NCBI GenBank assembly: GCA_013044195.1
Contig: JABEUV010000011.1
Span: 10,577-74,576, forward strand
Origin: Elusimicrobiota bacterium
GTDB taxonomy: Bacteria > Elusimicrobiota > Elusimicrobia > UBA1565 > UBA9628
Length of the DNA stretch: 64,000 nucleotides
Direction of reading: 5' to 3'
The translations under genes were made by a program, and so were the position numbers. Below, piece after piece: positions 10,407 through 58,289 of this stretch (the first letter of the stretch is position 1; the number at the start of each line of letters is the position of its first letter). The notes beneath the pieces are model-generated. The model had not been told where the DNA came from, did not search any database, and worked only from the letters and a program-made list of their open reading frames with translations.

Positions 10407-11242
10407 GCCCCGCCTCGCAGATAGGTGACTTTGGGATGGGTCCCGAGATCTTCCATCAAATGGAAGGCGCGGTCGTCTTTGGAGAGGCGCGCGACGTCGC
10501 TGTCACGATCATGCAGGTCGCCGAATACGATCGCTTTCGCCGGACACACCTCGGCGCACGCCGTCTGATAGTCGGCTTGCGACAGGGGGCGATGCCCCTC
10601 GGCCGCCGCTTTCTCCTTGGCGCGCTGCAGACGCTGATGGCAGAACAGGCATTTCTCGACGACGCCGCGAGGACGCACGGACACATCGGGATTGAGCCCC
10701 GCTTCCATCTCCACCGGCCACTGCGGCGTCTTCCAGTTGAACTCCTTGCACGTGTAGGGGCAGGCGTTGACGCAGTAGCGGCAGCCGATGCACCGCGCGT
10801 AGACCTGGCCGACGATGCCTTCAGGATTAAGATAGGTCGCGTAGACCGGGCAGACCTTGATGCAGGGCGGGTCATCGCACTGCTGACAGGGCATCGGCGC
10901 AAGGCGCTGCTTGGGCGCAGGATATTCGCCCTCGTTCAACGGCAGGATCTTCAGCCAGCGGATCACGCGGTTCATGGCCGCGTCCTCGGGGTTGCCGAGA
11001 GAGAGGTTGCTCTCGGCCGAGCAGGCGACGACGCAGGAGCCGCAGGCCGTGCATTTGTCGAGGTCGATGACCATGCCCCAGCGGCGCCCCTCAAGCGACG
11101 ACGGCTGCGAACGCCCGACCTCGGCCGCCAGAGCCTTCTTGCCGACGACGAGAGCGGCCAGGGCGGCGACGGGAGCCAGCCCGCGCTTGAAGAACTCCAG
11201 GCGCGAGACCCCTTGCGGCGATTCTTGAGGCTGTTCGCTCAT
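10403..11242 (-). CDS. Periplasmic 4x[4Fe-4S] ferredoxin subunit (ActB2/QrcC/PsrB-like), module 1
   Basis: Four Cys clusters (CTACGSCVVAC, CQQCDDPPCIKVCP, CIGCRYCVNACP, CLFCHQR...CAEVCP). Tat-like N-terminus. Confidence 0.8.
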   Translation of the reverse strand: MSEQPQESPQGVSRLEFFKRGLAPVAALAALVVGKKALAAEVGRSQPSSLEGRRWGMVIDLDKCTACGSCVVACSAESNLSLGNPEDAAMNRVIRWLKILPLNEGEYPAPKQRLAPMPCQQCDDPPCIKVCPVYATYLNPEGIVGQVYARCIGCRYCVNACPYTCKEFNWKTPQWPVEMEAGLNPDVSVRPRGVVEKCLFCHQRLQRAKEKAAAEGHRPLSQADYQTACAEVCPAKAIVFGDLHDRDSDVARLSKDDRAFHLMEDLGTHPKVTYLRGGA

Positions 11243-13122
11243 ACCGGCTCCATGCGCACGCGCGCGCCATCAAAAGACTCGGCAAGCTCCATCGGATTGG
11301 CGCCGACGCCCTTTGCCCAGCGTCCATAGGACGTATGTCCGAGACCGAAAGGCACGCTGACGACTCCGGGCATCGCCGAGGAAAGAACCCGCGCCTTGAC
11401 CTCGATCTTGCCCGCCGGCGACAATATACGAGCCTTCCGCCCGTCCTCGACGCCGCAGGCCTTCGCGGTGTCGGGGTGTATCTCGGCCCAGGTCTCCCAT
11501 TGCTCGCTGGTCTGCACGCCGGCAAGGCTCTGCAAATAGGGAAGATGCGCTCCCTCACCGCGGGAAAACGCCAGCGGCGTAAAGACGCAGAGCTCGAGCG
11601 GAAAGTCCTTGTCCTTGGGCGCAGGTTGCGAGGCGTCCTTGAGCGCCGACGCAAGCGGCGCATAGTCGACGGGCCCGGCCGGTGGCGAGGTCAAACGTTT
11701 GTGCCAGCCAGCGGCCTTTGTCTTGGCGTAATCGCCGTAGTCTCCGCCTCGTCCGAGGGCAAGGAATATCTCCCCCGCGTCCTTCGTGTCGTAGAGCGGC
11801 TTGACGCTCCGCTCCGCGAAGTTGACCGTCGTCCCCCCCGAAAGCAGGGTATTCTCGGACGCATGCAGTTGCTCGAGCGGCGTGCGGCAGGGGAGCACGA
11901 CGTCGGCATATTCCGCCGTCTCCGTCATATACGGTGTGACCGCGACGACGAAGTCGGCCTTCTCGAGCGCGGCCCGCCAGGCGCGCGGCGCCGTGAAAAC
12001 CGGGTTGACCCGGTCGATGAGCACGACGGAGGACAGCTTCGACGAGTCCGGCGCCGGGCGAGCCTCTTGCGGACTGGCCCGGAAATACGCGCCCAAACCG
12101 CCGCACAACGCGTTGAGGGAATGGACCGCCATCTGGCTCCACGCCGGCGCGCAGCGGCTGCCCAAAGCGACGGCCGGCCTCTGCGAGGCGAACTTCTCGG
12201 CAAGGACGCGCAACGACTGCTCGGGCGCTCCCGTCAACTCGGCGGCGCGCTCGAACGTGAACGGCTCGACGGCCCGCGCCAAGGCGTCCAGTCCCCGGCC
12301 CCCGCGTTCGTGTCGGCCGGTCTTCAGCAACTGGCGCGCGACGGCCAGCGCGACATAACCGTCCGTCCCGGGCCGCGCCGGAATCCAGGAGTCTCCTTTG
12401 CCGGCCGTGACCGAAAAACGCGGCGCGACGGACACGATCTGCGCGCGCGGAATCGAGGCGCGCAACCGGCCCCAGAGCCTTTGAGTTTCAACGTGCGATG
12501 ATTGCGTCTGCAGCCAGTCGTCGCCGAACGAGACGACAAGCCGCGCGCCCGCAGGGTCGCACGAAAGCGCCCCGCCGTTCATCGCAAGATGGGCGTCGAG
12601 CGGCGGCTCTCCAGGCGCAAATCCAAAATGCAAAACACGGCCGCCAAGAGCCGTAAGCGACTCCAGCCCGACGTCGCGCAGACGGGAAAACGTCACGGCG
12701 TCGAAGGCCCCGGGGCGCAGCTTGGCGGCGACGAGCTTGAGCGCTTCCTCCCATGGCACGTTCTTCCATGAGCCTTTTGCGCGCGCACCGCTGCGGACCT
12801 GAGCGAAGCGCAGGCGGTCTGGATGATAGAGTTCCTGAAGAAGCGCCGAACCTTTCGGGCACAGCGTGCCCTGGTTGACCTGATGATCAAGGACGCCCGA
12901 CACGCCGACGGCGAGGCCGTCGATCAGGCGCACGCGCACGCCGCAGCCGGCGGGACATAAGGAGCAGACCGAGGCCGAGAATGTCTCGATGCCGAGCGGC
13001 GGCGCGGCCTCCTCCATCGGCGTCAGAAAACTCTTGCGCGCGCAAGCGGGCAACGCGGAACCTGCGCCGAAGATGCCGGCCAATTTCAGGAAATTCTTGC
13101 GTGAGAGGTCGAAGTCGTTCAT
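11239..13122 (-). CDS. Molybdopterin-oxidoreductase-like subunit (ActB1/QrcB-like), module 1
   Basis: Tat-like signal SRKNFLKLAG. N-terminal FeS cage CSLCPAGCG...C. 627 aa, corresponding to the N-terminal two-thirds of the fused 967-aa ActB at 20255-23158. Confidence 0.75.
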   Translation of the reverse strand: MNDFDLSRKNFLKLAGIFGAGSALPACARKSFLTPMEEAAPPLGIETFSASVCSLCPAGCGVRVRLIDGLAVGVSGVLDHQVNQGTLCPKGSALLQELYHPDRLRFAQVRSGARAKGSWKNVPWEEALKLVAAKLRPGAFDAVTFSRLRDVGLESLTALGGRVLHFGFAPGEPPLDAHLAMNGGALSCDPAGARLVVSFGDDWLQTQSSHVETQRLWGRLRASIPRAQIVSVAPRFSVTAGKGDSWIPARPGTDGYVALAVARQLLKTGRHERGGRGLDALARAVEPFTFERAAELTGAPEQSLRVLAEKFASQRPAVALGSRCAPAWSQMAVHSLNALCGGLGAYFRASPQEARPAPDSSKLSSVVLIDRVNPVFTAPRAWRAALEKADFVVAVTPYMTETAEYADVVLPCRTPLEQLHASENTLLSGGTTVNFAERSVKPLYDTKDAGEIFLALGRGGDYGDYAKTKAAGWHKRLTSPPAGPVDYAPLASALKDASQPAPKDKDFPLELCVFTPLAFSRGEGAHLPYLQSLAGVQTSEQWETWAEIHPDTAKACGVEDGRKARILSPAGKIEVKARVLSSAMPGVVSVPFGLGHTSYGRWAKGVGANPMELAESFDGARVRMEPV

Positions 13123-13123
13123 A

Positions 13124-13615
13124 TCAGCGGTGGCAGGCCAGGCAGTCCCTGGTCACCCCTCGGGACTGGTGGCAGGCGATGCACCGGGCCATTTTGATGG
13201 GAACCGCCTGGTAGGCGACCGGCGTCGCCTTTTCGGCCATGTCGCCGTGGCAGACGGCGCAGTCGAGCTGGGCGATCCCGACGTGGCGCTCATGCGAGAA
13301 GTAGACGTGCTTGGGCACGCTGTAGACGCGCTGCCACGGGATCTCGCGCTTCTGGGCCGCGTAATCGCGGATCGCCTGGGTCTTCGGATTGTCCTCGGAG
13401 CTGTGGCAGGTCATGCAGACCTCGGTGCGCGGAAATTGCGCATGAACGCGCCCCTCGGCGATGCCCTCGTGGCAGACTCCGCACTCCAGCCCCGCCCCGA
13501 TATGCTTCTTGTGATTAAAAGCGATCGGCTGCTCCGCCGCCTGAAGCCGGCGCGCCAACCAGAGCGCGCCGACCACGGCGGCCAGAAAGGCGCCCGCGAG
13601 TGCCGCTCGCCTCAT
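13124..13615 (-). CDS. Pentahaem c-type cytochrome, ActA-like, module 1
   Basis: N-terminal membrane anchor plus five CXXCH (CGVCH, CMTCH, CAVCH, CIACH, CLACH). Homologous to the C-terminal domain of 23174-24268 (PIAFNHKKH / VYFSHERH blocks). Confidence 0.8.
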   Translation of the reverse strand: MRRAALAGAFLAAVVGALWLARRLQAAEQPIAFNHKKHIGAGLECGVCHEGIAEGRVHAQFPRTEVCMTCHSSEDNPKTQAIRDYAAQKREIPWQRVYSVPKHVYFSHERHVGIAQLDCAVCHGDMAEKATPVAYQAVPIKMARCIACHQSRGVTRDCLACHR

Positions 13616-13618
13616 GGC

Positions 13619-13975
13619 TTACTTTTTCCCTTTCGGCGCGGCAAGCTTCGCCTGAAGCGAGCGCACATAGGCGAGGATCCCTTTGATCTCGTCATCCTGG
13701 AGCTTGCCCTTGAACGAGGGCATATTCTTGCGGCCCGAATTGATGACCTTGATCAAGTCGGCGTCCGGAGTCTTGACCGCGGCGCCGCCCGCGAGGTTCA
13801 TGATATTGATATCCGCCTTAAACGCATCGGCCATGGATGCTTTTCCGGTCCCACTCTTCGAATGGCAGATCGCGCACTTCTGCGCAAAGAGCTTTGCGCC
13901 GTCCACCTTCGCCGGCGCGGTGGGCGTCTGGGCAGCGACGTTCACGGTCAGCAACAACGTCATCAGTGTGTTCAT
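13619..13975 (-). CDS. Monohaem class-I cytochrome c
   Basis: Signal peptide, a single CAICH, distal Met (NMPSF). 118 aa. Confidence 0.8.
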   Translation of the reverse strand: MNTLMTLLLTVNVAAQTPTAPAKVDGAKLFAQKCAICHSKSGTGKASMADAFKADINIMNLAGGAAVKTPDADLIKVINSGRKNMPSFKGKLQDDEIKGILAYVRSLQAKLAAPKGKK

Positions 13976-14799
13976 TCCTTCCTCCTCTGCTTGAGAGCTA
14001 TTATAGGCTCGCTGCGCGCCGCCCGTATTGCCGGAACGCAGGCGGGGCCATGATAAAAATCATGTCTCTGCGGCGGGAGGTGCCCGACGTAGCGCAGGCG
14101 GGCCTCGTCGAGGACGCGGAGTCGGCGCCCCTCGATGGAGACAAGATTTTTGCGGGCAAGTTCGGAAAGCCCGCGGCTGACGGCCTCCGCGGACGTGCCG
14201 AGCAAATCGGCCAATTCCCGGCGCGATTCGGAGAACCGCACCATCGCTCCGCCGGACGACTCAAGCCGGCTTACAATGAGCCCCGCAAGCCGTTCAAGAA
14301 TCGTGCGCTGCGCCAGATTAAAAGTGGCCCCGTCGGCCTCGGCTAGTTTACGGGCCAGATGCCGGGAGAACATGCGCGAAAGTTCCGGCTCGACGCGCCA
14401 CAGCTCGAAGAAACTTTCCGCGTCGAGGGCGCAGATCAGAGAGTCTTCCATGACCTGCGCCGACGCGGCATAAGGCTGCTCGGCGAGCAGCGCCCTCTCC
14501 CCGAATATGTCGGGACCGCAGAACACTCGCAGGATATGACAGCGCTCCGCGCGATCATCGCGCACGAGCTTAACTCTTCCCTTGCAGAGAAAGTAGACGC
14601 TCGACGGCATGTTCCCTTCGTAGAAGAGAACGTCTCCCCGGCGGTAGCGGTTCGCGCGCCACATCACGGACATTCGTGCGTATGCCGCCTGCGGCAACCC
14701 CCTCGCGCAGGCCCAACCGCTAAAAGCGCACCGTCCGCCCGGGTCTGATCGGGCGCAAATAGCCGGAAGCAGGGCGGATTGACGGGATCGGGAGTCCAT
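13972..14799 (-). CDS. Crp/Fnr-family transcriptional regulator
   Basis: cNMP-binding-like beta-roll (GDVLFYEGNMPSSVYFLCKGRVKL) and C-terminal HTH (RRELADLLGTSAEAVSRGLSELARKNLV). Stop overlaps the start of the downstream cytochrome c gene (ATGA). Confidence 0.8.
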   Translation of the reverse strand: MDSRSRQSALLPAICARSDPGGRCAFSGWACARGLPQAAYARMSVMWRANRYRRGDVLFYEGNMPSSVYFLCKGRVKLVRDDRAERCHILRVFCGPDIFGERALLAEQPYAASAQVMEDSLICALDAESFFELWRVEPELSRMFSRHLARKLAEADGATFNLAQRTILERLAGLIVSRLESSGGAMVRFSESRRELADLLGTSAEAVSRGLSELARKNLVSIEGRRLRVLDEARLRYVGHLPPQRHDFYHGPACVPAIRAARSEPIIALKQRRKE

Positions 14800-14880
14800 C
14801 GCCTATCCGTGTCGAAACGATCCTGCCATCCCGCGTTGAACGAACGCGCGGCAGGATTTAAGCTACGGCGACGCCGCAGC

Positions 14881-16038
14881 CTAAACGCCCGCGAAGGTTC
14901 GGCTTTCCTCGATGAACGGGTCGCGCTCGGGCTCGGCGGGGACCGCGGCGAACGCGCGGTCGAGAAGAAGAACGAACGCCGCGCCTACGGCGACGAAGGC
15001 CGCCGCTTCCGCCAAGCCCAAACGCGGGCCAGGACCCTGCGACGGCTCGATCAGCATGAAGAGGTCGAGCGCATGGCCGGCCAAGAGAAGCAGGGCCGCG
15101 AAGAACAAGACGCCCTCCTTCCTCTTGCGGCTGGCGGGCAGAAGCAATCCGAAAGGAACGACGAAGTTGACGACCGGATTCGTCCAGAACAGGCACGACC
15201 ACGCCGGCGACGAGCGCATCATGTAGTGGACGGCCTCATCGGGGATGTTCGTATACCAGATCAGCAGGTACTGGCAGAACCACAGATACGCCCAGAAGCA
15301 GCTGAAGGCGAACAGATATTTTCCGAGGTCGTGCAGGTGGTTCTCATTGAGTTCGGAAAAGAAGCCGCGCCGGCGCAAGACGATGACCAGCGCTGTCACC
15401 GCCGCCAAACCGCCCTCGAAAGCGCCCGCGAAAACGAACCAGGGATAGAGCGTGCTGGTCCAGCGCGGTTCCAGCGACATCAGCCAGTCCACGGACGCCA
15501 GGCTGAACGTCAGTCCGAAGGCGAGCAGAAACGTCGCCGACGCGGCGACGGGCAGACGCAACGCTTCGCCGTGCGCGCCGTCCTGCGCGCGTGAGGATCC
15601 CACCAGCACGCGCGCGTAGGCAAGCCACACCAGCCAGCAGACGGCCGCGCGCGCGGCAAACCAGCCGACGCTGAAATAAACGGCCTTGCCCGTCCCCAGC
15701 GTCTGCGCGACTCCGGGAACGGCCCACGGGTAAATATCGCGCGCCAGGAACGCCGTCAGCATCGTCAACGCCGCGCCGAGCGGCAGGTAGGACGTCATCG
15801 CCTCCGGCGCGCGCCGGAACAGCGCCGGCCAGCCCGCGGAGGAGACGTTCTGGATCGCGATAAAAAACAGCGCGGTCAGCGCCAGCGAGGAAAAGTAGAA
15901 GTTCGCCAGCAGGAGCCCTGCTCCCGCGCGTGAAACGGAGAACTTCGCGCCGAGAACAAACAACGCGGCACCCGCGAGCAGGGCCACGAAGGCTGCGGAA
16001 GATTCGGACGGGGTCAGCAGACGCCGGTTTTCCTTCAT
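14881..16038 (-). CDS. ACIII membrane subunit ActF-like (NrfD-related)
   Basis: 385 aa polytopic protein, last gene of module 2, overlapping the cytochrome gene by 4 nt. NrfD-like hydrophobic profile. Confidence 0.6.
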   Translation of the reverse strand: MKENRRLLTPSESSAAFVALLAGAALFVLGAKFSVSRAGAGLLLANFYFSSLALTALFFIAIQNVSSAGWPALFRRAPEAMTSYLPLGAALTMLTAFLARDIYPWAVPGVAQTLGTGKAVYFSVGWFAARAAVCWLVWLAYARVLVGSSRAQDGAHGEALRLPVAASATFLLAFGLTFSLASVDWLMSLEPRWTSTLYPWFVFAGAFEGGLAAVTALVIVLRRRGFFSELNENHLHDLGKYLFAFSCFWAYLWFCQYLLIWYTNIPDEAVHYMMRSSPAWSCLFWTNPVVNFVVPFGLLLPASRKRKEGVLFFAALLLLAGHALDLFMLIEPSQGPGPRLGLAEAAAFVAVGAAFVLLLDRAFAAVPAEPERDPFIEESRTFAGV

Positions 16039-18374
16039 TTATGCTTCTCCCAGGATCGCAGGTAGGCGATGATCGATTGGATGTCCGAGGCCGCCAAGCC
16101 CGGCTTGCCGTTCATGCCGTCGCCGAAGGTGGGCATCGCCGTGCCCGGACGGCCCAGGGCGATCGTCGCCTCGAGGAAGTTGTCGTCGACCGCCTTCAAG
16201 AACTCGGGATCGAGGGACGGGGCGTAGACGCCGGGCTTGCCGCCGTGGTTGCCGCGGCCGTCGGCGCCGTGGCAGCGCGCGCAGTTGACGAGGAACAAGG
16301 CCTTGCCGTCCGAGGCGTTGTCCGAGGAGCGGTCAACCTCGCGGTAGGCCGTCGGCGGATGCGTCTCGAAGCTTCTTACATAGGCGACGACGTTGTCGAT
16401 ATCGTCCGAGGACAGCGCCGGCACGGCCGAGCCGTTTTCAAGCCCGTCGTGGAACGAAGGCATCATCGAGCCCTCGCGGCCAAGGATCACGGTTCCCTCA
16501 AGGAATCCGTTGCTGGCGACCTGGAGGAACGCCGTGTTGCCGATGCCCGGGCCAATGCCGCCTTCGCCCTGATCGCCGTGGCAGCGCGCACAGTTGGCCA
16601 CGTACACCTTTTTGCCGTCGGAGGCGGACGCCCACGAGTAGTTGCGCTTGAGGCCGTCGGCCGGAGGATGAGACTGCAGGCGACGCAGGTAGGCGACCAG
16701 GTCGTCGATGTCCTTGGGCGCCAGAGGATCGCGCGCGCGCTTCAAGAATCCCTGCATCTCGGTGCCGGTTTTTCCTCCAGCGATGGTCCGCCACAGGAAA
16801 TCGTCGGACTCCTGAGCGAGCAGGGCCGGGTTGCCGATCTGGGTGCCCATGTCGCCGGCGCCCAGGTCGCCATGACACTTGCGGCAGTTATTCTGATAGA
16901 GGACGGCGCCGTGATCGGCGTTGCCACGGCGCAGGGCCGTCGTCATCTGAACGGCGGGACTCGTGCGCCAGGTGCCGATGAAGGAGATCACATCGGCAAT
17001 CTCCTGCGCGCTGAGCTGGCGCCAGGCCGGCATCGCGGTGCCGGGGCGGCCCTGCGTGATCACGTTATACAGGAAGCGGTCGTCGGCCATCGCCAGGAAC
17101 GAGGGCGCCGACAAGGAGGAGCCGACCAGGCCCTCGCCCTTGGCGCCGTGGCAGGCCGCGCACTTGGCGGAAAACAACTTCGCGCCGTTCGAAGAAGACG
17201 CCTTCGCCGACAGCGCCGCCACCGCATCGTAGGCCGGCGCCGGAGCGTGCCAGGAGCGGATGTAGGCGATCAGGGCGTTGACGTCTCCCTCGGTCAGGTC
17301 GTAGGGCGCGGGCATCGCGGTGCGATGGCGTCCCAAAGAAATCGTGCGCCGCAGGAAGTCGTCGGAGGCCAGCGACAGGAACTGCGGCGAGTTCAGCATG
17401 TTGCCGATGCCGCCCGCGCCCTCGGGACCGTGACAGCCGATGCAGTGAGTCAGGAACAAAGCCTTGCCGCGCGCGGGATCGGCCTTGACGACGGCGTAGG
17501 GCACGATGCGCGGCGTGGGCCACGCCCAGCTACGGATGTAGAGCAGAACGCTCTGGCGCTGAGAGGGCGTCAGCGCGGTCTTCCAGGACGGCATGCCCGC
17601 GATGAGCCGGCCGTTGGCGATAATATCCATGTAGTAGGAATCTTCGGCGATCGAAATGACCGGGGGCAGGTGCAAGGTCGGTACGCCGGCGGTGGGGGTG
17701 AGCCCTTCCTCTCCGTGGCACGACGCGCAGTTCTGAGCGAAGAGTTCTCGTCCGTAGTCCACCGTCGCAGGCTCGTTGCGGCGCGGGTCATTGCCCAGAC
17801 GGACGAGCTCACGGACCTGGAGCGTGCGCAGATAATCGATGACCTTCCAGCGGTCGTCGGCACTCACCAGCGCGCCGTGCGCCGGCATCAGGTTCAGGCC
17901 ATGGCCGAAGGTGATGACGTGGAACAGCGCGCCGTCGGGCATCGCATACACCGACGGCGACGCGACCGGAAACGAAAAGCGCTTGAAGGCTCGCGCCACC
18001 GCGCCGTCGCCGAGCCCGGTATAGCCGTGGCAGTGCTGGCAGTACGACTCGAAGACCTTGCGGCCGCGGGCGAGGTTCTCCGCGGTGGGCGGAAACGGGT
18101 TCTTGAGCTCGCGGCCGGCGCGAGCCATCTCACGCAGGCCGGGACCGTAGTGCAAAGGCTCCTGTCCGCGCGCGACCGCGCCTTCCGGCGCCGGGCGCAT
18201 CGCCCGCCCGTCCGAGAAAAGAGTGCTGGACTCCTGGCTGTGCACCGCCGGCGTGCGGTACAAGTCGGTGAAAATGCGGGGGTTGAAGCGGGTCAGGTCT
18301 TGACGCGTGGCCAGGATCACGACGGAAACCAAGACGGCCAAAATCGCGGCGGGAAGCAGACTGCGGCGGCTCAT
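16035..18374 (-). CDS. Membrane-anchored c-type cytochrome with seven tandem class-I haem c domains (ActE position)
   Basis: 779 aa. Seven CXXCH (CQHCH, CASCH, CIGCH, CAACH, CRKCH, CARCH, CARCH), each followed about 40 aa later by a TAMP/TEMQ/SMMP Met-ligand motif. N-terminal transmembrane anchor. Confidence 0.8.
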   Translation of the reverse strand: MSRRSLLPAAILAVLVSVVILATRQDLTRFNPRIFTDLYRTPAVHSQESSTLFSDGRAMRPAPEGAVARGQEPLHYGPGLREMARAGRELKNPFPPTAENLARGRKVFESYCQHCHGYTGLGDGAVARAFKRFSFPVASPSVYAMPDGALFHVITFGHGLNLMPAHGALVSADDRWKVIDYLRTLQVRELVRLGNDPRRNEPATVDYGRELFAQNCASCHGEEGLTPTAGVPTLHLPPVISIAEDSYYMDIIANGRLIAGMPSWKTALTPSQRQSVLLYIRSWAWPTPRIVPYAVVKADPARGKALFLTHCIGCHGPEGAGGIGNMLNSPQFLSLASDDFLRRTISLGRHRTAMPAPYDLTEGDVNALIAYIRSWHAPAPAYDAVAALSAKASSSNGAKLFSAKCAACHGAKGEGLVGSSLSAPSFLAMADDRFLYNVITQGRPGTAMPAWRQLSAQEIADVISFIGTWRTSPAVQMTTALRRGNADHGAVLYQNNCRKCHGDLGAGDMGTQIGNPALLAQESDDFLWRTIAGGKTGTEMQGFLKRARDPLAPKDIDDLVAYLRRLQSHPPADGLKRNYSWASASDGKKVYVANCARCHGDQGEGGIGPGIGNTAFLQVASNGFLEGTVILGREGSMMPSFHDGLENGSAVPALSSDDIDNVVAYVRSFETHPPTAYREVDRSSDNASDGKALFLVNCARCHGADGRGNHGGKPGVYAPSLDPEFLKAVDDNFLEATIALGRPGTAMPTFGDGMNGKPGLAASDIQSIIAYLRSWEKHK

Positions 18375-18889
18375 TGCAGGGACTCCTCTTTGACTTCAAC
18401 GGCACCGGCGTCGCTCAACAAACGACGCAAAGCCTCACCGTCGCCGCCGCGCCTCAGCGCCAGGACGAAGCGGTCGTTGAGGCCGCCCAGGTTCGACAAG
18501 GCCGGGACCTTCTCCGGATTCGGAATCAGCCCGCGCGTGAGCAGGAACGTGAGCACGGACCCCACGGACGCGAACAGAACGGTCAGTTCGAAGCCGATCG
18601 GGATCAGCGCCGGGATGGCCGAGTAGGACTTGCCGCCGATGATCATCGGCCAATCGATGCGCGTGGCCCAATACTCGAAGCTCAGCGCGGTGGCCAAGCC
18701 CGCCGCGCCGAAGCCCAGACACGCCAACGGCAGAAACGACGGCGACAAGCCCATGGCCGTATCCAGGCCGTGCACGGCGAACGGCGTGTAGGCGTCCTGG
18801 ATCGTGAACCCGGCCGCGCGCGCATTCCTGGCGGCGGCGACGATGTCGTGCTCGGTGCGAAAAATTCCGACGACGAGCTCAGTGGCCAT
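18371..18889 (-). CDS. ACIII subunit ActD-like (DUF3341) membrane protein
   Basis: 172 aa, two predicted transmembrane helices, between ActC and the cytochrome as in act operons. Confidence 0.6.
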
Positions 18890-20258
18890 GCGCGCCCTCC
18901 TCGGGCCGCCGGGCGTAGTGGAGCACCCCTTTGACCTCGCTGATCGCGATCATCGGCAGAACGCGACAGAACAGCAGAAATGCCGTAAAGAACAGACCGA
19001 AGCTGCCGCACAGCGTGCCGACCTCGATATACGTCGGGTGATACATCGTCCAACTCGACGGCAGGAAGTCCCGGTGCAGGGAGATCACGATGATGTTGAA
19101 GCGCTCCAGCCACATCCCGATGTTGATGCAGATCGAGATGATGAAGACGAGCCAGGGCGTCGTGCGCACGCGCTTGGACCACAGCGCCTGAGGGATGAAG
19201 GCGTTGCAGAGAAACATCGTGTAGTAGCACCACCGGTAGGGCCCGAAGAGGCGGTTGAGGAAAGTGAAGCGCTCGTAGGGGTTGCTGCCGTACCAGGCGA
19301 AGAACAACTCCGTGCAGTAGCCGAGCGTGAGGATCATCCCCGTCGCCAGGGTGATCTTGCACATCGCGTCGATGTGGCGCAGCGTGATGTATTCCTCGAA
19401 GTTCATCACCTTGCGCGCGATGATCATCAAGGTCATGACCATCGCAAATCCCGAGAAGATGGCGCCGTCCACGAAGTAGGGCGGGAAGATCGTCGTGTGC
19501 CAGCCGGGCAGGACCGCGGTGGCGAAGTCGAAGCTGACGATGGTGTGCACCGAGAGCACCAGCGGCGTGGCCAAGCCCGCCAGCAGAAGATACAGCGCCT
19601 CATAGTGCGTCCAAGTGCGCATGGACCCGTCCCAACCCAGGCTCACCGCCCGGAAGATCTTCCGACGCCAGCCATTGGCCCGCTCCGCGACCAGCGCCAG
19701 GTCGGGAAGAAGGCCCATGTACCAGAATATCGCCGAGACGGTGAAGTAGGTGCTGATCGCGAACACGTCCCAGAGCAGGGGCGAGCGGAAGTTGACCCAC
19801 AACGGACCCATCGTGTTCGGATAGGGGAACACCCAATAGGCCAACCAGGGCCGGCCCATATGGATCAGCGGGAACACGCCCGCGCACATGACCGCAAACA
19901 ACGTCATGGCCTCGGCCGAGCGGTTGACCGACGTGCGCCAACGCTGGCGGAACAGGAACAGAATCGCCGAGATCAGCGTTCCGGCGTGGCCGATGCCGAC
20001 CCAGAACACGAAGTTCGTGATGTCGAACGCCCAGCCCACGGTCTTGTTGAGGCCCCAGGTCCCGATGCCGGTCCAGATCTGATCAACGACCAGAAAAACG
20101 CCGATCATCAAGACCGTCGACGACGCGGCGATCGAGTAGTACCAGGCGGACGTCGGGCCCCGCTCGATCGGGGAACACACGTCCTCGGAAACGCGAGCGT
20201 AATCCTTGCCCCCGTCGATCAACGGCCGGCGCAATGTCGAGACGGCGTGTTCGCTCAT
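18879..20258 (-). CDS. ACIII quinol-oxidising membrane subunit ActC (NrfD family), module 2
   Basis: 459 aa polytopic. [22 protein letters not shown] and [11 protein letters not shown] blocks, paralogous to 8838-10406. Confidence 0.85.
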
Positions 20259-23158
20259 GACTTCCTCACCTGCGCGTTGCGCACCTTAATCCCGTAGAAC
20301 ACCGAGGGGCCCACGCCCAATTCCTCGAGCACGCGGAAACTGTGATTCTCGCGTGCCGTCCGAGCGACCCGGCTCTTCGGGTCGTTCATGTCGCCGAACA
20401 CGATCGCGTCCGCCGGACAGCTCTGCGCGCAGGCGGGCGTGACGTCGCCGTCCACCACCGCGCGGCCGTCCTCGGCCGCTTGGAACTTGGCGGAGTTGAT
20501 GCGCTGGACGCAGAACGAGCACTTCTCCATGACGCCGCGCGTGCGCACCGTGACGTCCGGGTTCAAGACCATATTCTGAGTCAGATCGTCATGCGCGTAA
20601 TCGAACCAGTTGAAGCGACGGACCTTATAGGGGCAGTTGTTGGCGCAGTAGCGCGTGCCCACGCAACGGTTGTAGACCTGCATGTTCAGGCCTTCCGTCG
20701 AGTGCGTGGTCGCGGCCACGGGGCACACGGTCTCACAGGGCGCGTCGTCGCAGTGCTGGCAGAGCATCGGCTGGAACGCCACGGTCGGATTCGTCTCGGG
20801 CTCGTCGCCGCCGTAGTAGCGGTCCAGACGGATCCAGTGCATCTCGCGGCTCTTGCGCACCTCGGCCTTGCCCACGACCGGCACGTTGTTTTCCGCCGTG
20901 CAGGCGACCACGCAGCCGGCGCAGCCCGTGCAGGAGGTCAAATTGATGGCCATCCCCCACTTGTGGCCCTTGTAGTCGTGCTTGGGCCACATCCCCGCCT
21001 CATTTTCCGGCACGCCCTCGGCCGGAGCAAGCTTGCGGTATTCCTCCAGGCTCGCTTCTTGAATAATCGGGCGTTCGCGGCCGGTGAACGGCTCCGTCAG
21101 CGAATCCATGAGCTGAGTGCGCGCCAACGCGGAGGTCTGCTCCAGCACGGCCACCGACAGCGCCGAACCGGACGCCAGCGGGAAGATGTCCGCGCCGCCC
21201 GGCGGATCCACCTCGATGGGCAGAAGCTTGCGCGTCGGCAGGTTCGCCGCGATCGGGCCCGCGGACGGGCGTCCGTAGCCCAGAGCCGCCGCCACCACGC
21301 CGTCGGCCTGGCCGGGCTGGACGCACGCGGGCAGGTCGATCGCGCGGGTGCCGGCGCTCAACCGCACCATGCGCCCGTCTTCCACGCCCAGGCGCTTGGC
21401 GTCGGCCGGAGAGAACAAAGCGACATTGCCCCACGTGACTTTCGTCACCGGGTCCGGTAGTTCCTGCAACCACGGATTGTTGGCCTGGCGTCCGTCGAAC
21501 ATCGCCACGCTGGCGTAGGCGTCCAGCTCGAACTCGCCCGCCGCCGCCGCCGCGCGCGCGGATTTAAGCCCGGACAGAGCCTCGGCGCGCAGGGCGCCGT
21601 GCGCCTCGGCCGGAGCGTCGATCGATACCACGCCGCGCTCCAATGCTTGGTCCCAGAACGCGTCGAAGGAGCCGCCGCCCTTGTGACGGGGATAGACGGT
21701 CTTAAGCCACTGGCCGCGCACGTAATCGTGGGCCGTGACCGCCTGGCCCGACCACGCCAGCAGGCTTTCGATGATCGAGCGCGAATCGTAAAGCGGCTCG
21801 ATGAGCGGCTGGACCAAGCTGTGCACGCCGGCCGCGGGCCGCGCGTCGCCCCAGGTTTCCAGGGCGTGCGGCGTCGTCGCCACGAAAGCCGCGTGCGTCG
21901 CGGTCTCGTCGCGGCGCTGCGTCAAGGACACGAGCGCCCCGACCTTCGCCAACGCGGCGGTGAACGCCTCCGCCCGGGAGTGGTCGTAGCACGGGTTGGC
22001 CTCGAAAACGATCAGCGCGCCGACTTCGCCGCGCTCCATCTCCGCGATCAGGCGGTCCAAAGCACCCGTCTCGCCACGGCGCTGGTAGGAAGGATGCGCG
22101 ACGTCCACGGTGCGGCCATAGGCGCCCAGCGTCTCGTTGAGTCCGTTGACCGCGCGCTGAACGGCCGAATCGGAGGAACCGCTGACGACCAAGGCCTCGC
22201 CGTGAGCGGCGGCCAAGGCCTCCGCGGTCCGGCGCAGAACCTCGTGCGCGACGGGCGTCTTGCCCGCCACGTGCGCCGGCGCGGCGCGGCCCAAGCGTTC
22301 GGCGACCAACCGGGACAGTTCGACGACGGTCGCCAGCATGTCCGAAGGCTTGACGGCCGCGCGCAGGTCGGCGTTGGCTCCGGTGACGGACATGCGCGAC
22401 TCAAATTGCGCATGCCAGGACATCTTGCCGTCGGGCTTGCGTCGGGCGGACCAGGACTTGGTGAACTCCACGGGCGAAAGCCACGCGCCCAGGAAATCCG
22501 CGTCGAAAGAGGCGATCGCGCGCGCATTCTCGAAGCGATAACGGGGCAGGACGGCCCGGCCGCGCGTGAGGCGGTGCGCCTCCAGGATCGCGGCGAAGGA
22601 CGGCTCGTCGTAGATCACGCGCTCCGCGCCGTGGCGCGCGCAGAACTCCGCGACCGCGGCGTCCAGCGCCGGGCTGGGCACGGTCTGCGAAAGCACGCGC
22701 ACTTTGCGCCCCTGGCGCTTCGCCTCGGCCAACGCCTTCTCCACACCTGCGTCCAAGGACGCCCACGAGGCCGCAGCTCCCGCGGACAAAGGATTTTTGA
22801 GACGCTCTGAATCGTAAAGGTCCAGAACCGTCGCTTGACCGCGCGCGCACAGGCCGCCGCGCGAAAGCGGATGATCGGGATTGCCTTCCATCTTGATCGG
22901 ACGGCCGTCGCGGCTCTTGACCAGAACGCCGCACGCCGCCGCACAGCCCGCGCAGGTGGACGCATACCAGCGCGCCAGGCCCGGCGTCTGACCTTCGATT
23001 TGGCGGGCATACGGCACGATCTTCTCGCGCGGGGCGTGCAGGTCGCAGCCGGAGGCCATCGCAGCAAAGCTGCCGCCGAGAATTTTTAGGAAGTCGCGGC
23101 GCTCCACGCCTTCCCGGCCGTCCTGCTCTTCGTACGCGCGGCGCTCGTCTTCGGTCAT
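20255..23158 (-). CDS. ACIII subunit ActB (fused molybdopterin-like domain + 4-cluster FeS domain), module 2
   Basis: 967 aa. Twin-arginine signal [11 protein letters not shown]-terminal CAGCAAACG...C cage. C-terminal ferredoxin clusters ([37 protein letters not shown]). Confidence 0.85.
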
Positions 23159-23173: not shown

Positions 23174-24268
23174 TCAAAAATGGCAGGACGCGCAATCAAG
23201 CGGTCCGCCGACACGCTTCCAGTGGCTGGGCGCGTCCTTCGGCGTCAAGCGATGGCAATTGATGCACCAGCCCATGGTCAGCGGCGCGGCCTGACGCATC
23301 CGCGTCATCGTCTGCACGGGCCCATGGCACTCCTGGCACTGCAGGTTATTGGCGATGTGCGCGCGATGGCTGAAGTGCACGTAGTCGGGCAGGTGATGGA
23401 CCCGGTTCCACGCAAAGCCCCGTGCGGTCGGGGAGCTCACGCTCGCATCGTAAGCCGCGACGATCTTGGCGATCTCGGGCGAAGGCTCCTTGGCGCCGGA
23501 GACGGAGCGCACGGCCACATGGCAGTTCATGCACACGCTGAGCGGCGGAACGCCCGCCGAGTCGCTGCGCTGGGCGCCGCCGTGGCAATACAGGCAGGAG
23601 ATGGTCAGACGACCGGCGTGAAGCTCATGAGAGAACGCGATGGGCTGAGGCGGTATGTGGCCCTGCTGGTCGCCGGGGAGGCGGAAATAACGCCAGCCGC
23701 CGAACGCCCAGTAGGCGGACGCCGCACAGAACACCGCCAGCACCGCGGCGTCGCGCCGTGCGCCGAAAACCGAAACGATCAAAGTCCCGGCCGCCAACAC
23801 CGCGAAAATTAGCAGGCCCGGGACGGAGAACCCGTGCCAGCCCTCGTCCGGAGAGCGCAGTTCTGGGGAAGGCGTCTGGGACGCGGACTGAATGAACGCA
23901 ATCAGGCCTTCGGCCTGGGCCTTGGTGACATGGACGTTTTCCATGCGCAGGTCGCCGTACTCGGCCAACAGCTTCTTGGCCTGCGCATCCTTGTCCAAAT
24001 AGGGATCCGGGTTCTGAATAAAGCCGACGAGCCAATCCTTGTCGCGGCGGGAAGTCACGCCCGCCAGGTCGGGGCCGACGCCGCGTCCGCCGCCGACAGT
24101 GTGGCATTGCGCGCAGCGATGGATGAAAAGCATCGCGCTGTCGTGCAAAGAACCGGAGGAGGCCTCCGCATGTGCGGACACGGCCGCCAGCAACAGAACG
24201 AACGCCGCGACCGCACGCGCGGGCACCCCAAAACTCGATCGCGATGTCCGCTGGCTCATCCTTTTCAT
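23174..24268 (-). CDS. ActA-like pentahaem cytochrome c with an additional N-terminal monohaem class-I domain (six CXXCH)
   Basis: Signal peptide, then CAQCHTVGGG (class-I-like), a transmembrane segment, then five CXXCH (CLYCH, CMNCH, CQECH, CINCH, CASCH). Confidence 0.8.
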   Translation of the reverse strand: MKRMSQRTSRSSFGVPARAVAAFVLLLAAVSAHAEASSGSLHDSAMLFIHRCAQCHTVGGGRGVGPDLAGVTSRRDKDWLVGFIQNPDPYLDKDAQAKKLLAEYGDLRMENVHVTKAQAEGLIAFIQSASQTPSPELRSPDEGWHGFSVPGLLIFAVLAAGTLIVSVFGARRDAAVLAVFCAASAYWAFGGWRYFRLPGDQQGHIPPQPIAFSHELHAGRLTISCLYCHGGAQRSDSAGVPPLSVCMNCHVAVRSVSGAKEPSPEIAKIVAAYDASVSSPTARGFAWNRVHHLPDYVHFSHRAHIANNLQCQECHGPVQTMTRMRQAAPLTMGWCINCHRLTPKDAPSHWKRVGGPLDCASCHF

Positions 24269-24278
24269 TCTCCGATTC

Positions 24279-24728
24279 TCAGTTCTTGGCCGGAGCCGCA
24301 GGCGTCGTCATCGAAGACGACGACACAGTCGCCGAAGCCGCCTTGGACTCGCCCTGGCCCGCCGCGGCCTTCAACTTGGCGGCCAACAGGTCTTTCTTGC
24401 GCACCGACGAGTCGTAGATCAGGAAGTCGGTGATCGTCTTCTGCGCGGCGCCGTGGATGCCCGAGTAGCGCTTGTGGCGCATCTTATCGACGAGAGCCTG
24501 CCACTCGGCGGGAGTCGCGTAGTCCGAATTGATCGCGCGCGCCGTCGTGTGGCAGGTCGAGCACTTGTCCAGGAACAGTTTGTAGGCGGCCTGTTGTTCC
24601 TTGGGATACTTCGAAACATCGATGGTGGCGGGGCCGCTGTCGGCCGGGAACGTCTGGTCGGCCGCGTACGAAGGCGCGCAGACCAGGAAGGCCGCCAAAA
24701 CGAAGACGGCCACTAGAATTTTTTTCAT
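24279..24728 (-). CDS. Small secreted single-CXXCH protein (putative monohaem cytochrome), paralogue A
   Basis: Signal peptide MKKILVAVFVLAAFLVCAPSYA. FPADSGPATIDVSKYPKE...KCSTCHTTARAIN. Paralogous to 25095-25616. Confidence 0.5.
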   Translation of the reverse strand: MKKILVAVFVLAAFLVCAPSYAADQTFPADSGPATIDVSKYPKEQQAAYKLFLDKCSTCHTTARAINSDYATPAEWQALVDKMRHKRYSGIHGAAQKTITDFLIYDSSVRKKDLLAAKLKAAAGQGESKAASATVSSSSMTTPAAPAKN

Positions 24729-24742
24729 GGTCGGAATCTCCC

Positions 24743-24961
24743 TCACCGCTTCGCCCTTGCGGCCTTCACCGCGTCCGCGGGCATGGGCTCAAAAATGGTA
24801 TCCATCGGACCGTTCGGGCGGGAGCGTGGCGCCGCAGAGCGCGACGACCGGCGCAGACGCGGCAGAACGAACATTCCGCCCGCCAATCCGACCAGCGCCC
24901 CCCCGATGAACTGTCTTCGAGTTTTCGCGGCGGACTTTTTCGATTCGATCATGCGGCCCAC
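24743..24961 (-). CDS. Small ORF with Tat-type signal (TRRQFIGGALVGLAGG), hypothetical
   Basis: 72 aa. Stop overlaps the start region of paralogue A. Tat consensus S/T-RR-x-F-L/I. No other homology recognised. Confidence 0.3.
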   Translation of the reverse strand: MGRMIESKKSAAKTRRQFIGGALVGLAGGMFVLPRLRRSSRSAAPRSRPNGPMDTIFEPMPADAVKAARAKR

Positions 24962-25094: not shown

Positions 25095-25616
25095 TTATTT
25101 CGGGAACAGGCGCTTGTAATCGTCGGGGTGCTTCTTTTCGAAGTCCTCGACGAGCTTGAGACGCGCGGCCTTCCACGCGGCGGCCTTCGCTCCGGTCTTG
25201 CGCGCTTTCGAGTCGTAGACCAGGAACTCCCAGATGCGCTTGCCGCTCATCTTGTTGACCGGGCAGCCGGGCTTGGCCATCATGCGCTTGACCAGGCGGT
25301 TCCAGGCGTGCTCGCTGACGTCGATCAGGCGCGTGTCGGTGAACAGATCGGGCTGATCCTTGCGCGCCTTGGCCTCTTCCTCCGCGTTCAACTCCACGAA
25401 CTGAGCGTTGATCGGGCGGGCGATCGTGTGGCAGTTCGAGCACTTCTTCTGGAACTCTGCGTACGTCTTCTGCATTTCCTTCGGATAAGAAGAGACGTCG
25501 ATCTTGGTCGGGCCCGCGTCGTTGGGAAAAATCTGCGCCGCGGCCCGCGGCGCGGCGCCGAACACGGCACCCGCCAGCAACGCCGTCACGACCGCCACAA
25601 TCCGCACTTTCTTCAT
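25095..25616 (-). CDS. Small secreted single-CXXCH protein (putative monohaem cytochrome), paralogue B
   Basis: Signal peptide. FPNDAGPTKIDVSSYPKE...KCSNCHTIARPIN, aligning with paralogue A. Confidence 0.5.
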   Translation of the reverse strand: MKKVRIVAVVTALLAGAVFGAAPRAAAQIFPNDAGPTKIDVSSYPKEMQKTYAEFQKKCSNCHTIARPINAQFVELNAEEEAKARKDQPDLFTDTRLIDVSEHAWNRLVKRMMAKPGCPVNKMSGKRIWEFLVYDSKARKTGAKAAAWKAARLKLVEDFEKKHPDDYKRLFPK

Positions 25617-43561: not shown

Positions 43562-43600
43562 TATAATTCCGGTTCTAGCCCGCACCCAGGAGAAACCATC

Positions 43601-44500: not shown

Positions 44501-44501
44501 G

Positions 44502-54045: not shown

Positions 54046-54053
54046 CGCGCCTA

Positions 54054-58203: not shown

Positions 58204-58289
58204 CGCCGGCTGAACGAACGCGAGAAAGATATTCCCTTCGGGACGCGGCCGAGATCGGCCCGCCCGCGAAACCTCGGAAGGCACGGCGT

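Follow-up and report, generated by a model that had tools for sequence, protein, structure and literature searches.

A seven-haem variant of the ACIII subunit ActE with a six-domain cytochrome c array in an Elusimicrobiota bacterium

The electron transfer chain of ACIII is understood to end in a single exit haem, carried by ActE, from which electrons go to a soluble carrier or, without one, to an oxidase. The locus described here lies in a 64-kb stretch of Elusimicrobiota DNA that was analysed as a whole (the window) and encodes a protein with seven haem motifs. It raises the questions of whether the number of haem domains is genuine, whether the domains are equivalent and what the additional haems could contribute.

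Haem motifs and repeat number

The gene and its seven CxxCH motifs, exactly seven in number and beginning at residues 112, 216, 311, 405, 497, 595 and 698, are located as follows.

16035..18374, minus strand: heptahaem ActE gene, ATG start, 779 aa plus stop
18027..18041, minus strand: CxxCH 1 in domain d1, CQHCH, aa 112-116
17715..17729, minus strand: CxxCH 2 in domain d2, CASCH, aa 216-220
17430..17444, minus strand: CxxCH 3 in domain d3, CIGCH, aa 311-315
17148..17162, minus strand: CxxCH 4 in domain d4, CAACH, aa 405-409
16872..16886, minus strand: CxxCH 5 in domain d5, CRKCH, aa 497-501
16578..16592, minus strand: CxxCH 6 in domain d6, CARCH, aa 595-599
16269..16283, minus strand: CxxCH 7 in domain d7, CARCH, aa 698-702

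The Pfam models PF13442 and PF00034 matched seven stretches of the protein (E 2.3e-78 and 4.3e-65), and a candidate methionine ligand was found 39-47 residues past each haem histidine (M163, M261, M354, M448, M540, M638 and M747 in d1 to d7). All seven methionines were kept in 74 of 74 full-length homologues, and their conserved positions suggest His/Met ligation of the haems. The preliminary description of seven class-I monohaem domains arranged head to tail in one polypeptide was thus borne out by the motifs, the Pfam domains and the methionine in each. The consensus that it gave around the methionine, (T/S)(A/E/M)MP, holds for d3 (TAMP), d4 (TAMP), d6 (SMMP) and d7 (TAMP), but not for d1 (NLMP), d2 (AGMP) or d5 (TEMQ, which lacks the proline). 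Of the open frames of 60 aa or longer in a six-frame scan of the window, only seven contained a CxxCH-type motif, and only three of these contained more than one: the heptahaem frame, actA and a pentahaem frame.

Tandem repeats can in principle be mis-assembled, and six-haem proteins also occur on their own, complete with an N-terminal anchor (P0079, P0080), as would suit a repeat number created by assembly or a sequencing error that fused actE with a downstream six-haem gene. However, the longest exact repeat inside the gene was 16 nt, the units were 56-77% identical to one another at the nucleotide level, Tandem Repeats Finder reported no array in the gene, and a direct-repeat search of it returned only short diverged patches, the best of them 60-79% identical. 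An independent Logan assembly (SRR9677583) was identical across the gene and its flanks. Moreover, the seven-haem layout was kept in one continuous reading frame by the 74 full-length homologues (43-88% identity), which came from many samples and many independent assemblies (Elusimicrobiota and Planctomycetota MAGs); the spacing of their haem motifs was nearly invariant (SD 0.5-2 aa, down to 43% identity), and 16 contigs carried the 88% orthologue. The repeat expansion by assembly against which the preliminary description had cautioned is exceedingly improbable, as is a fusion by sequencing error.

The ACIII operon and the identity of the N-terminal domain

The gene is part of a complete, translationally coupled actABCDEF operon, in which every subunit matches solved ACIII structures. 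Its first 4 nt are shared with the actD stop, and at the other end its stop codon overlaps the start of actF.

14881..16038, minus strand: actF, NrfD-like membrane subunit, 385 aa (6btm_F, 1.3e-55; 6f0k_F, 1.1e-36)
18371..18889, minus strand: actD, 172 aa (PF11821 ActD, 3.3e-46)
18879..20258, minus strand: actC, NrfD-type quinol-binding subunit, 459 aa (PF03916, 1.5e-17)
20255..23158, minus strand: actB, fused Mo-pterin-like B1 and 4Fe-4S B2, 967 aa (6btm_B, 1.8e-183; also 6lod_B and 6f0k_B)
23174..24268, minus strand: actA, 364 aa, six CxxCH (6btm_A, 3.7e-46; 6f0k_A, 1.1e-33)

ActA consists of a signal peptide, an extra N-terminal class-I cytochrome c domain, a transmembrane helix and a pentahaem c7-like wire, while actF had no match in Pfam or NCBIfam. 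The subunits by which an ACIII is recognised were all found: pentahaem ActA, ActB with B1 and B2, NrfD-like ActC and ActF, and ActD. A quinol:cytochrome c oxidoreductase activity is predicted for the encoded complex.

Two parts of the heptahaem protein can be distinguished.

17805..18374, minus strand: ActE proper, aa 1-190, with a transmembrane helix at aa ~3-22, a low-confidence linker and class-I domain d1 (CQHCH at aa 112, Met163)
16038..17789, minus strand: six-domain class-I cytochrome c array, d2-d7, aa ~196-779

Residues 8-189 matched the ActE sequences in the PDB (6btm_E, 1e-19; 6f0k_E, 1.4e-17; 6lod_E and 8k9e_E), and the alignment with 6btm_E paired query residues 31-185 with residues 8-158 of the 162 in the chain. 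The same chain was the top match of the predicted structure in a Foldseek search of the PDB (TMt 0.62). In a 53-sequence alignment, CQHCH and Met163-Pro164 of d1 were invariant. Since the N-terminal part aligns along the whole of ActE, haem 1 corresponds to the haem at which the ACIII wire normally ends. The AlphaFold2 model (mean pLDDT 83, pTM 0.75, calculated without haems) has a hydrophobic helix at aa 3-22. In contrast to R. marinus ActE, which has a lipobox cysteine, the first 100 residues contain no cysteine, lipobox or other, and the predicted uncleaved transmembrane helix probably takes the place of the lipid anchor.

The gene lies between actD and actF, and the N-terminal part of the encoded protein is homologous, in both sequence and fold, to the whole length of ActE. 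However, instead of a single c-type haem it has seven CxxCH motifs, only the first domain corresponding to ActE, so that it is a variant rather than a canonical ActE. The gene is actE and the locus is a complete ACIII. The canonical subunits (R. marinus 6F0K, F. johnsoniae 6BTM, Roseiflexus 6LOD and Chloroflexus 8K9E) occupy the same slot between actD and actF and have the same class-I haem, but they have one haem in 157-209 residues, whereas the protein described here has 779 residues and six more class-I domains. The same slot was occupied by the seven-haem gene in all 12 of the other distinct seven-haem loci examined (L001/L089, L004, L005, L006, L007/L008, L009, L010, L011, L030, L090, L091 and L092). 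Seven equal repeats, as first proposed, are therefore not what the gene encodes: that reading overlooked the ACIII operon, d1 belongs to ActE and has an origin of its own, d2-d7 constitute a different array, and the architecture is 1+6.

Origin and relatives of the six-domain array

The array d2-d7 is colinear with free-standing six-haem proteins. It is also colinear with the last six domains of ten-haem cytochromes, which combine it with the four-haem cytochrome found in Rieske/cytochrome b operons. Of the 120 best homologue clusters, 75 had seven haems, 33 had ten and a few had six. When the domains were treated singly in a tree, each position formed its own clade across the seven-, six- and ten-haem proteins; the clades were pure at six of seven positions (20 of 21 at position 4), and nearest neighbours shared their position in 136 of 137 cases. 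The occurrence of the same array, domain for domain, in three architectures shows that the fusion is ancient. Phylogeny of the single domains, the check suggested earlier for choosing between recent duplication and ancient fusion, thus decided for the latter and ruled out recent internal duplication. Fusions of this size are rare, as had been supposed: in a set of 1.84 billion representatives, clustering at 50% identity leaves the full-length family with two clusters. A profile search of genome contigs with the family alignment recovered at least 80 loci, mostly of mono- and dihaem relatives, and the informative new loci included at least four with seven haems and at least five with ten; taxon counts for the heptahaem family are likewise lower bounds. 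Judged by its sequence, the seven-haem protein with its ancient six-domain extension is a variant of the known ACIII exit subunit, and no description of a heptahaem ActE was found in the literature that is searchable without a subscription.

Several known systems resemble the protein in part. The tetrahaem ActE-like protein of candidate phylum MBNT15 (PMC9386147) is encoded in an ACIII-like cluster, away from oxidase genes, and has more than one haem at the ActE position, but it has four haems rather than seven and no conserved six-domain module is reported for it, a distinction drawn from the published description (PMC9386147). QcrC of the actinobacterial bcc-aa3 supercomplex (7QHM, 6ADQ, 7E1V) has tandem class-I domains on a quinol:cytochrome c oxidoreductase, where they replace the soluble carrier, and d3-d4 align with it (E ~1e-8). 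It differs from the array in having two domains rather than six, a Rieske/b complex and an oxidase as known partner. CcoP, the dihaem cbb3 subunit (3MK7, 8SMR), has c4-like paired class-I domains and was the best non-ActE match for d2-d3 and d6-d7. QcrC and CcoP are both dihaem tethered carriers inside supercomplexes, and d2-d7 resemble both. The largest one-chain concatenation of class-I domains among the structures in the fold search was that of the trihaem subunits of membrane-bound alcohol and aldehyde dehydrogenases (8GY2_B, 8GY3_A), which have three domains, weak fold matches (E ~0.07-0.09) and another enzyme context. No structure in the PDB spanned more than one or two domains in the Foldseek search (best TMq 0.17), which leaves the array without a template.

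Other assignments were rejected. The NCBIfam ccoP model TIGR00782 scored 197 bits, above its cut-off of 180, but the score is summed over four repeated stretches and there is no cco context (no ccoNOQ among the reading frames scanned in the window), and the protein is therefore not a CcoP. Multihaem cytochromes of the MtrA/OmcS type, which serve extracellular electron transfer, have one CxxCH per about 30-40 aa, are mostly bis-His ligated and lack the class-I fold, whereas the present protein has one haem per 92-108 aa, class-I Pfam domains and a conserved methionine in each. Pfam matches to multihaem families were below the cut-off or had no individually significant stretch. The 'hexaheme' of Tenderiales occurs in a different context and was set apart by that context, not by sequence. 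No match to NapB or NapC was found in Pfam or NCBIfam, and any role in feeding Nap would thus be analogous, not homologous.

Possible role and partners of the array

In the proposed mechanism, ActC would oxidise quinol and electrons would pass via FeS1 of ActB and the ActA haem wire to haem 1 of ActE, as in R. marinus ACIII (PMC5928083), where ActE, the direct donor to the caa3 oxidase, contributes the final His/Met haem (+165 mV). Beyond haem 1, the electrons would cross the six further His/Met haems of d2-d7, which may constitute a tethered periplasmic wire of fixed geometry, or a docking arm, that substitutes for a diffusible cytochrome c. The opposite flow, from a periplasmic donor to quinone, is also conceivable. 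It is likely that the protein is the electron-exit subunit of ACIII with a built-in six-haem His/Met wire that extends the exit, and the array probably makes a fixed connection between the complex and a partner enzyme in the periplasm, in place of a diffusing carrier. Of the earlier proposal of a conduit or docking platform, an electron conduit or docking arm is retained as the likeliest role; its list of partners, an oxidase or an external acceptor, overlooked a NapA-like periplasmic molybdoenzyme that recurs beside the array in relatives. The candidate partners, a NapA-like enzyme or MtrAB/PioAB-like porin-cytochromes, are suggested solely by the loci of relatives, as no partner genes adjoin the ACIII operon in the window or in the closest orthologous loci (L006, L007/L008), and the reading frames scanned in the window yielded no gene for a terminal oxidase, a Nap-like protein, MtrA or MtrB.

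A NapA-like periplasmic enzyme, probably a nitrate reductase, encoded elsewhere in the genome is a tentative candidate; ACIII and the array would then replace NapC and NapB in energy-conserving periplasmic nitrate reduction. A NapA-like and NapG/NapH-like module lies beside the array in all three architectures. The NapA-like gene was seen next to the seven-haem array in L089 and L090, while L004, L009, L010 and L030 have the NapG/NapH-like set and end before the NapA-like position; the module also adjoins the array in the ten-haem loci L002, L003, L012-L015 and L038 and that of the six-haem protein P0080. The molybdoenzyme has a twin-arginine signal and its best PDB relatives are NapA (2.5e-67), but it scores 269 bits against a NapA family cut-off of 904. 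Rrf2-type regulators stand at the operon heads of L089 and L090 and one is found further upstream in L002/L003, and in the window actF is followed by a Crp/Fnr-family regulator, for which FixK/FNR-like NCBIfam matches fell under the cut-off.

13972..14799, minus strand: Crp/Fnr-family regulator directly downstream of actF (PF00027, PF13545)

Nitrate reductases occur in some groundwater Elusimicrobia, and ACIII in lineage IV (10.1101/765248). Delivery of electrons to periplasmic Nap by a complex III-type enzyme, Qcr, rather than NapC has been established by genetics in C. jejuni (PMC6195509), although Qcr is a Rieske/b complex without a fused six-domain array and its likeness to the array loci would be one of function. 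Against this candidate, the module is missing from the window and from the close-clade loci L005, L006, L007, L091 and L092, the Nap-like synteny being confined to a clade of 44-48% identity and to the six- and ten-haem architectures. The NapG/NapH-like loci already hold a potential quinol dehydrogenase for the molybdoenzyme, which counts against a conduit.

Two other partners are each unlikely. The array could span the periplasm to outer-membrane porin-cytochromes of the MtoAB/PioAB/MtrAB kind, the external acceptor of the earlier proposal, and serve extracellular electron transfer or the oxidation of Fe(II): in L005, whose protein is a 56% orthologue, genes for an MtrA-like decahaem protein, an MtrB_PioB porin and small class-I cytochromes lie on either side of the ACIII operon, an MtrA-like gene lies near L009, NapC/NirT-type multihaem and Paired_CXXCH cytochromes adjoin L091 and L092, and ACIII has been proposed in the chains of Fe(II) oxidisers (10.1101/2022.05.06.490989). 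However, no MtrA- or MtrB-like gene was detected in the window and the porin pair proper is present in only one locus. Alternatively, the array could stand in for soluble cytochrome c as a tethered carrier and pass electrons to a haem-copper oxidase (aa3 or cbb3) within a supercomplex, which would agree with the similarity of d2-d7 to CcoP and QcrC and would parallel the dihaem QcrC of bcc-aa3 and the direct transfer from R. marinus ActE to caa3 (PMC5928083), but one or two domains are enough in all known supercomplexes. Even less probable is that the six extra haems serve mainly to store electrons, as a capacitor does, or to dock several partners, rather than as a directional wire; the differing neighbourhoods of the relatives (Nap-like, porin-cytochrome or none) would fit such a general-purpose output, but all six domains have kept strict positional orthology and almost the same spacing through long divergence, which points to a defined geometry and not to storage units that could be exchanged for one another.

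The family is a conserved one in which the ACIII exit gains six haems, and the same module is joined to Rieske/cytochrome b complexes, the ten-haem fusions usually adjoining the uncharacterised NapA-like enzyme. Should the array be a fixed wire, it would 1) show a way in which bacteria can hard-wire quinol oxidation to periplasmic reductases, 2) provide a testable case of proton-motive periplasmic nitrate reduction outside the Epsilonproteobacteria and 3) give a role to hundreds of MAG proteins labelled only 'c-type cytochrome'. A broader reading, in which the array is a rigid high-potential His/Met wire of class-I domains that is portable between two unrelated quinol oxidoreductases, ACIII and Rieske/cytochrome b, and bridges them to periplasmic NapA-type molybdoenzymes or outer-membrane porin-cytochromes in carrier-free, hard-wired supercomplexes, is rather doubtful; were it true, periplasmic wires would gain a new class, and Elusimicrobiota and Planctomycetota would have a way to conserve energy from periplasmic nitrate reduction.

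Elsewhere in the window, long reading frames without a Pfam match occur at 28906-31326, 42161-44524, 44358-45869 and 49367-50977, some of which may be spurious because the sequence has 66% GC. Three small genes lie upstream of actA.

24279..24746, minus strand: small secreted protein, 155 aa, one CxxCH, no Pfam family
24743..24961, minus strand: 72-aa reading frame with a twin-arginine-like motif, RRQFIGGALVGLAGG
25095..25616, minus strand: 173-aa paralogue of the 155-aa protein, CSNCH

The 155-aa protein, a possible accessory carrier or subunit, is kept upstream of actA in the close clade, the 72-aa frame is kept at the same position in L005, L006 and L007, and the 173-aa paralogue has an 86% identical orthologue in L007.

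The ActE position of an Alternative Complex III operon

The 7-haem ORF at 16035-18374 (-) and its same-strand neighbours form a complete operon for Alternative Complex III (ACIII, subunits ActA-ActF). At both ends of the 7-haem ORF the start and stop codons overlap with the adjoining genes.

Genes of the ACIII operon (6btm, a solved ACIII structure; suffix letter, chain)
23174-24268, -, actA, six CxxCH motifs, 6btm_A 3.7e-46
20255-23158, -, actB, 6btm_B 1.8e-183
18879-20258, -, actC, NrfD, PF03916
18371-18889, -, actD, PF11821, 3.3e-46
16035-18374, -, 7-haem ORF, ATG start, 779 aa
14881-16038, -, actF, 6btm_F 1.3e-55

The 7-haem protein begins with a predicted hydrophobic helix (aa 3-22) that lacks a lipobox cysteine. 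Its seven CxxCH motifs are located at residues 112, 216, 311, 405, 497, 595 and 698, and both PF13442 (E 2.3e-78) and PF00034 (E 4.3e-65) matched seven stretches. Every unit has a methionine 39-47 residues past the haem-binding histidine (M163, M261, M354, M448, M540, M638 and M747). In a six-frame scan of the window, a CxxCH-type motif occurred in just seven open frames of 60 aa or longer, and more than once in just three, so the regular series of seven is not a chance occurrence. The consensus (T/S)(A/E/M)MP given in the preliminary description fit four of the domains, numbered d1-d7 from the N-terminus, but d1 (NLMP), d2 (AGMP) and d5 (TEMQ) deviated.

The ActE sequences of four solved complexes aligned over their full length to residues 8-189 (6btm_E, 1e-19; 6f0k_E, 1.4e-17; 6lod_E, 7e-12; 8k9e_E, 6e-9), and a fold search with the AlphaFold2 model likewise ranked ActE first. 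Unlike this N-terminal part, d2-d7 resemble dihaem CcoP and actinobacterial QcrC. The protein is therefore ActE plus six domains: the seven head-to-tail class-I units initially described are present, but they are not equivalent repeats.

In ActA, the transmembrane helix and pentahaem wire are preceded by an additional class-I cytochrome c domain at the N-terminus (aa ~40-130), which also matched the SCO1/SenC-fused cytochrome c 2l4d. This domain recalls the extra cytochrome c domain that the ActA of F. johnsoniae reportedly carries.

Repeat number and ancestry of the six-domain array

The possibility, raised at the outset, that the repeat number came from assembly was not borne out. Tandem Repeats Finder detected no array inside the gene, the best direct repeats were patches of 38-60 nt with 60-79% identity, and the longest exact repeat was 16 nt. 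DNA identity among the seven coding units was 56-77%, and the similarity overall is far below the level able to mislead an assembler. An independent assembly, the Logan assembly of run SRR9677583, contained a 14.7-kb contig on which the gene and its flanks were identical to the window, and a 100-kb contig in NCBI encodes the identical protein, titled 'MAG: c-type cytochrome [Elusimicrobia bacterium]'. Seven CxxCH motifs were found in 75 of the 120 best homologue clusters; 74 of these were longer than 760 aa and 43-88% identical to the window protein, and the 88% orthologue was recovered from 16 contigs. Across the 74 long homologues the spacing between successive motifs had a standard deviation of 0.5-2 residues, and a methionine occupied the ligand position of all seven domains in every one. 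A frameshift or missed stop codon joining two genes was excluded by the divergence of the repeats, the second assembly and the common layout of these 74 homologues.

The homologues fell into three architectures.

Architectures of array-bearing proteins among the best 120 homologue clusters
7-haem, 75 clusters, ~780 aa, N-terminal part is ActE
6-haem, a few clusters, ~650-700 aa, own N-terminal anchor
10-haem, 33 clusters, ~900 aa, N-terminal anchor and four further CxxCH motifs

The array (d2-d7, aa ~196-779) is a module, colinear with the full set of six domains in the 6-haem proteins and, in the 10-haem proteins, with the six at the C-terminal end. Pairwise domain scores were strongly diagonal, each domain matching its positional counterpart best even in proteins 45-48% identical overall, and gave no counterpart of d1 in the 6-haem or 10-haem proteins. 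A neighbour-joining tree built on 137 domains taken from 21 proteins gave pure and complete clades for six of the seven positions and a clade with 20 of 21 members for position 4; the nearest neighbour in another protein came from the same position for 136 of the 137 domains. Within the 7-haem protein the mutual identity of d1-d7 was only 29-51%. The position-wise clades and this low identity indicate that the duplications predate the split of all three architectures. The choice between recent duplication and ancient fusion, which the preliminary description had posed, thus falls to ancient fusion, the domains grouping by position across architectures.

The AlphaFold2 model, built on a 53-sequence alignment, had a mean pLDDT of 83.3 and a pTM of 0.75; these scores and the invariant motif spacing suggest a fixed inter-domain geometry. 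No template in the PDB spanned more than a domain or two, the best query-normalised TM being 0.17. The family is rare, with two full-length representatives at 50% identity and only 155 proteins at E <= 1e-30 among 1.84 billion.

In published accounts ActE has a single haem. An ActE-like protein with four was mentioned in one genome paper (PMC9386147), and a study of groundwater Elusimicrobia noted ACIII in lineage IV with no comment on ActE (10.1101/765248). In the openly searchable literature, neither a heptahaem ActE nor the shared six-domain module was found described.

Electron path and candidate partners

In R. marinus ACIII, FeS1 of ActB is the primary acceptor from quinol, and a roughly 45-Å ActA haem wire carries electrons to the His/Met-ligated ActE haem (+165 mV, about 9 Å from ActA haem V), which is the direct donor to caa3 oxidase (PMC5928083). 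In the present complex, electrons would likewise pass from quinol through FeS1 of ActB and the ActA haem wire to the ActE haem, and the path would be prolonged by six more predicted haems. If these are occupied, ligated by His and Met and form a continuous chain conducting in this direction, the array would probably serve as a tethered wire or as an arm for docking. QcrC and CcoP are precedents for tethered class-I domains in place of a soluble carrier.

The ActE slot of the act operon held the 7-haem gene in 12 of 12 other distinct 7-haem loci (L001/L089, L004, L005, L006, L007/L008, L009, L010, L011, L030, L090, L091 and L092), all from Elusimicrobia and Planctomycetota/Pirellulaceae MAGs. 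ActA was 323-378 aa in all 7-haem loci examined. More distant act operons, from Melioribacteraceae, Bacteroidota, Ignavibacteria, Sumerlaeia and Acidobacteria, had an ordinary short ActE.

Three partners, not mutually exclusive, are candidates for the window organism; no oxidase, Nap-like set or porin-cytochrome was present among the ORFs scanned in the window. An oxidase, the acceptor in R. marinus, is a doubtful candidate. A porin-cytochrome, also unlikely, is suggested by L005 (56% orthologue), an Elusimicrobiota-like MAG in which two pairs, each of an MtrA-like multihaem protein and an MtrB/PioB porin, flank the act operon on both sides. The flanks (1-3358 and 13804-20380) also encode small class-I cytochromes, together with a Rieske/cytochrome b complex that has one subunit fused to a cytochrome c, suggesting an island for Fe(II) oxidation or for extracellular electron transfer. 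NapC/NirT-type and other multihaem cytochromes lie close by in L091 and L092, and the examined loci L006 and L007/L008 showed no obvious partner.

A NapA-like enzyme encoded elsewhere is a possible, still tentative, partner. In the clade of 44-48% identity, a single same-strand run in Planctomycetota and Elusimicrobia relatives (L089, 5961-21596; L090, 5883-21560) comprises an Rrf2 regulator, a divergent NapA-like molybdoenzyme (919-925 aa, predicted to be TAT-exported), two NapG-like ferredoxins, a NapH-like protein, a YHS-plus-NapH-like protein, a further ferredoxin and then the whole act operon. The NapG/H-like part was seen in L004, L009, L010 and L030, which end short of the NapA-like position. 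The Nap-like set was absent from the loci of the clade nearer the window (50-88% identity: L005, L006, L007/L008, L091 and L092). In L089 and L090 the NapH-like protein is long (~520-530 aa) and the YHS fusion has ~626-648 aa; in L090 the upstream genes also include tatA and those for Moco biosynthesis.

The same enzyme accompanies the array outside ACIII. The 10-haem operons, from Verrucomicrobia, Planctomycetota, Phycisphaerae and Gemmatimonadales, encode a GltD-like NAD(P)-binding FeS flavoprotein, a Rieske protein, a fused cytochrome b and the 10-haem cytochrome (transmembrane anchor, four CxxCH, six-domain array), which stands in place of cytochrome c1. This layout is akin to the flavoprotein-containing Rieske/b complexes proposed for anammox bacteria. 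NapA-like and NapG-like genes followed the operon in 7 of 7 loci (L002, L003, L012-L015 and L038), and NapH-like and YHS-NapH-like genes in six, L013 ending first. In the one 6-haem example examined, the genes that come next encode a molybdopterin enzyme, alike in size and domain content, and ferredoxins of the same kinds. C. jejuni Qcr is a precedent for a complex III-type enzyme that feeds periplasmic Nap (PMC6195509). ACIII is well known, but the putative longer exit wire is unusual, as is the ability of the array to serve both ACIII and Rieske/b complexes, and both points can be tested by experiment.

The NapA-like enzyme carries a twin-arginine signal, and among solved structures it is closest to periplasmic nitrate reductases (2jio, 2.5e-67). 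Its score of 269 bits is far below the NapA family threshold of 904, so nitrate is only a candidate substrate. In Gammaproteobacteria-type MAGs (Lysobacterales, Acidiferrobacterales and others; L024, L044, L047 and L049), a NapA-like/NapG/NapH-like module with a Mo subunit about 53-54% identical adjoins the short cytochrome c match of ~600 bp through which these loci were found; in the last three, the match directly precedes the Mo enzyme gene. A class-I cytochrome donor may be general to this enzyme family, the six-domain array being an expanded version.

Other genes of the window

Genes flanking the act operon
26966-28872, -, hemA (glutamyl-tRNA reductase) and CcsA-type cytochrome c assembly protein (PF01578), a short way upstream of the act genes
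24279-24746 and 25095-25616, -, small secreted proteins, paralogues of 155 and 173 aa, one CxxCH each, no Pfam family, directly upstream of actA
24743-24961, -, 72-aa ORF between them, twin-arginine-like motif (KTRRQFIGGALVGLAGG), conserved C-terminal 'GPxDxxFEP'
13619-13975, -, monohaem class-I cytochrome c
13124-13615, -, pentahaem c7-like cytochrome
11239-13122, -, Mo-pterin-like protein, twin-arginine-like N-terminus; best NCBIfam match QrcB, 200 bits, below cut-off
10403-11242, -, FeS protein, QrcC-like, 291 bits
8838-10406, -, NrfD-type membrane protein

The small one-CxxCH proteins, which may be accessory cytochromes or ACIII subunits, have orthologues at the corresponding site in L006 and L007/L008, and L004 and L009 carry homologues at other sites. 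The 72-aa ORF matched no family; counterparts of 68-80 aa occur at the matching position in L005, L006 and L007, and it is conserved, as are both small haem proteins, in the close clade. The hemA/ccsA pair is also upstream in L007, linking haem synthesis and maturation genes to the haem-rich operon. Downstream of actF, a Crp/Fnr regulator is followed by a second, minimal ACIII/Qrc-like set (8838-13975, -), which has no equivalents of ActD, ActE or ActF and is missing from L007, the locus of the 88% orthologue. Apparently without connection to the respiratory genes, 50752-61728 (-) encodes a series of very large proteins with TPR and Sel1 repeats (1195, 637 and 742 aa), a radical SAM protein, and a Trp-halogenase/FAD-binding protein with a TPR-repeat fusion.
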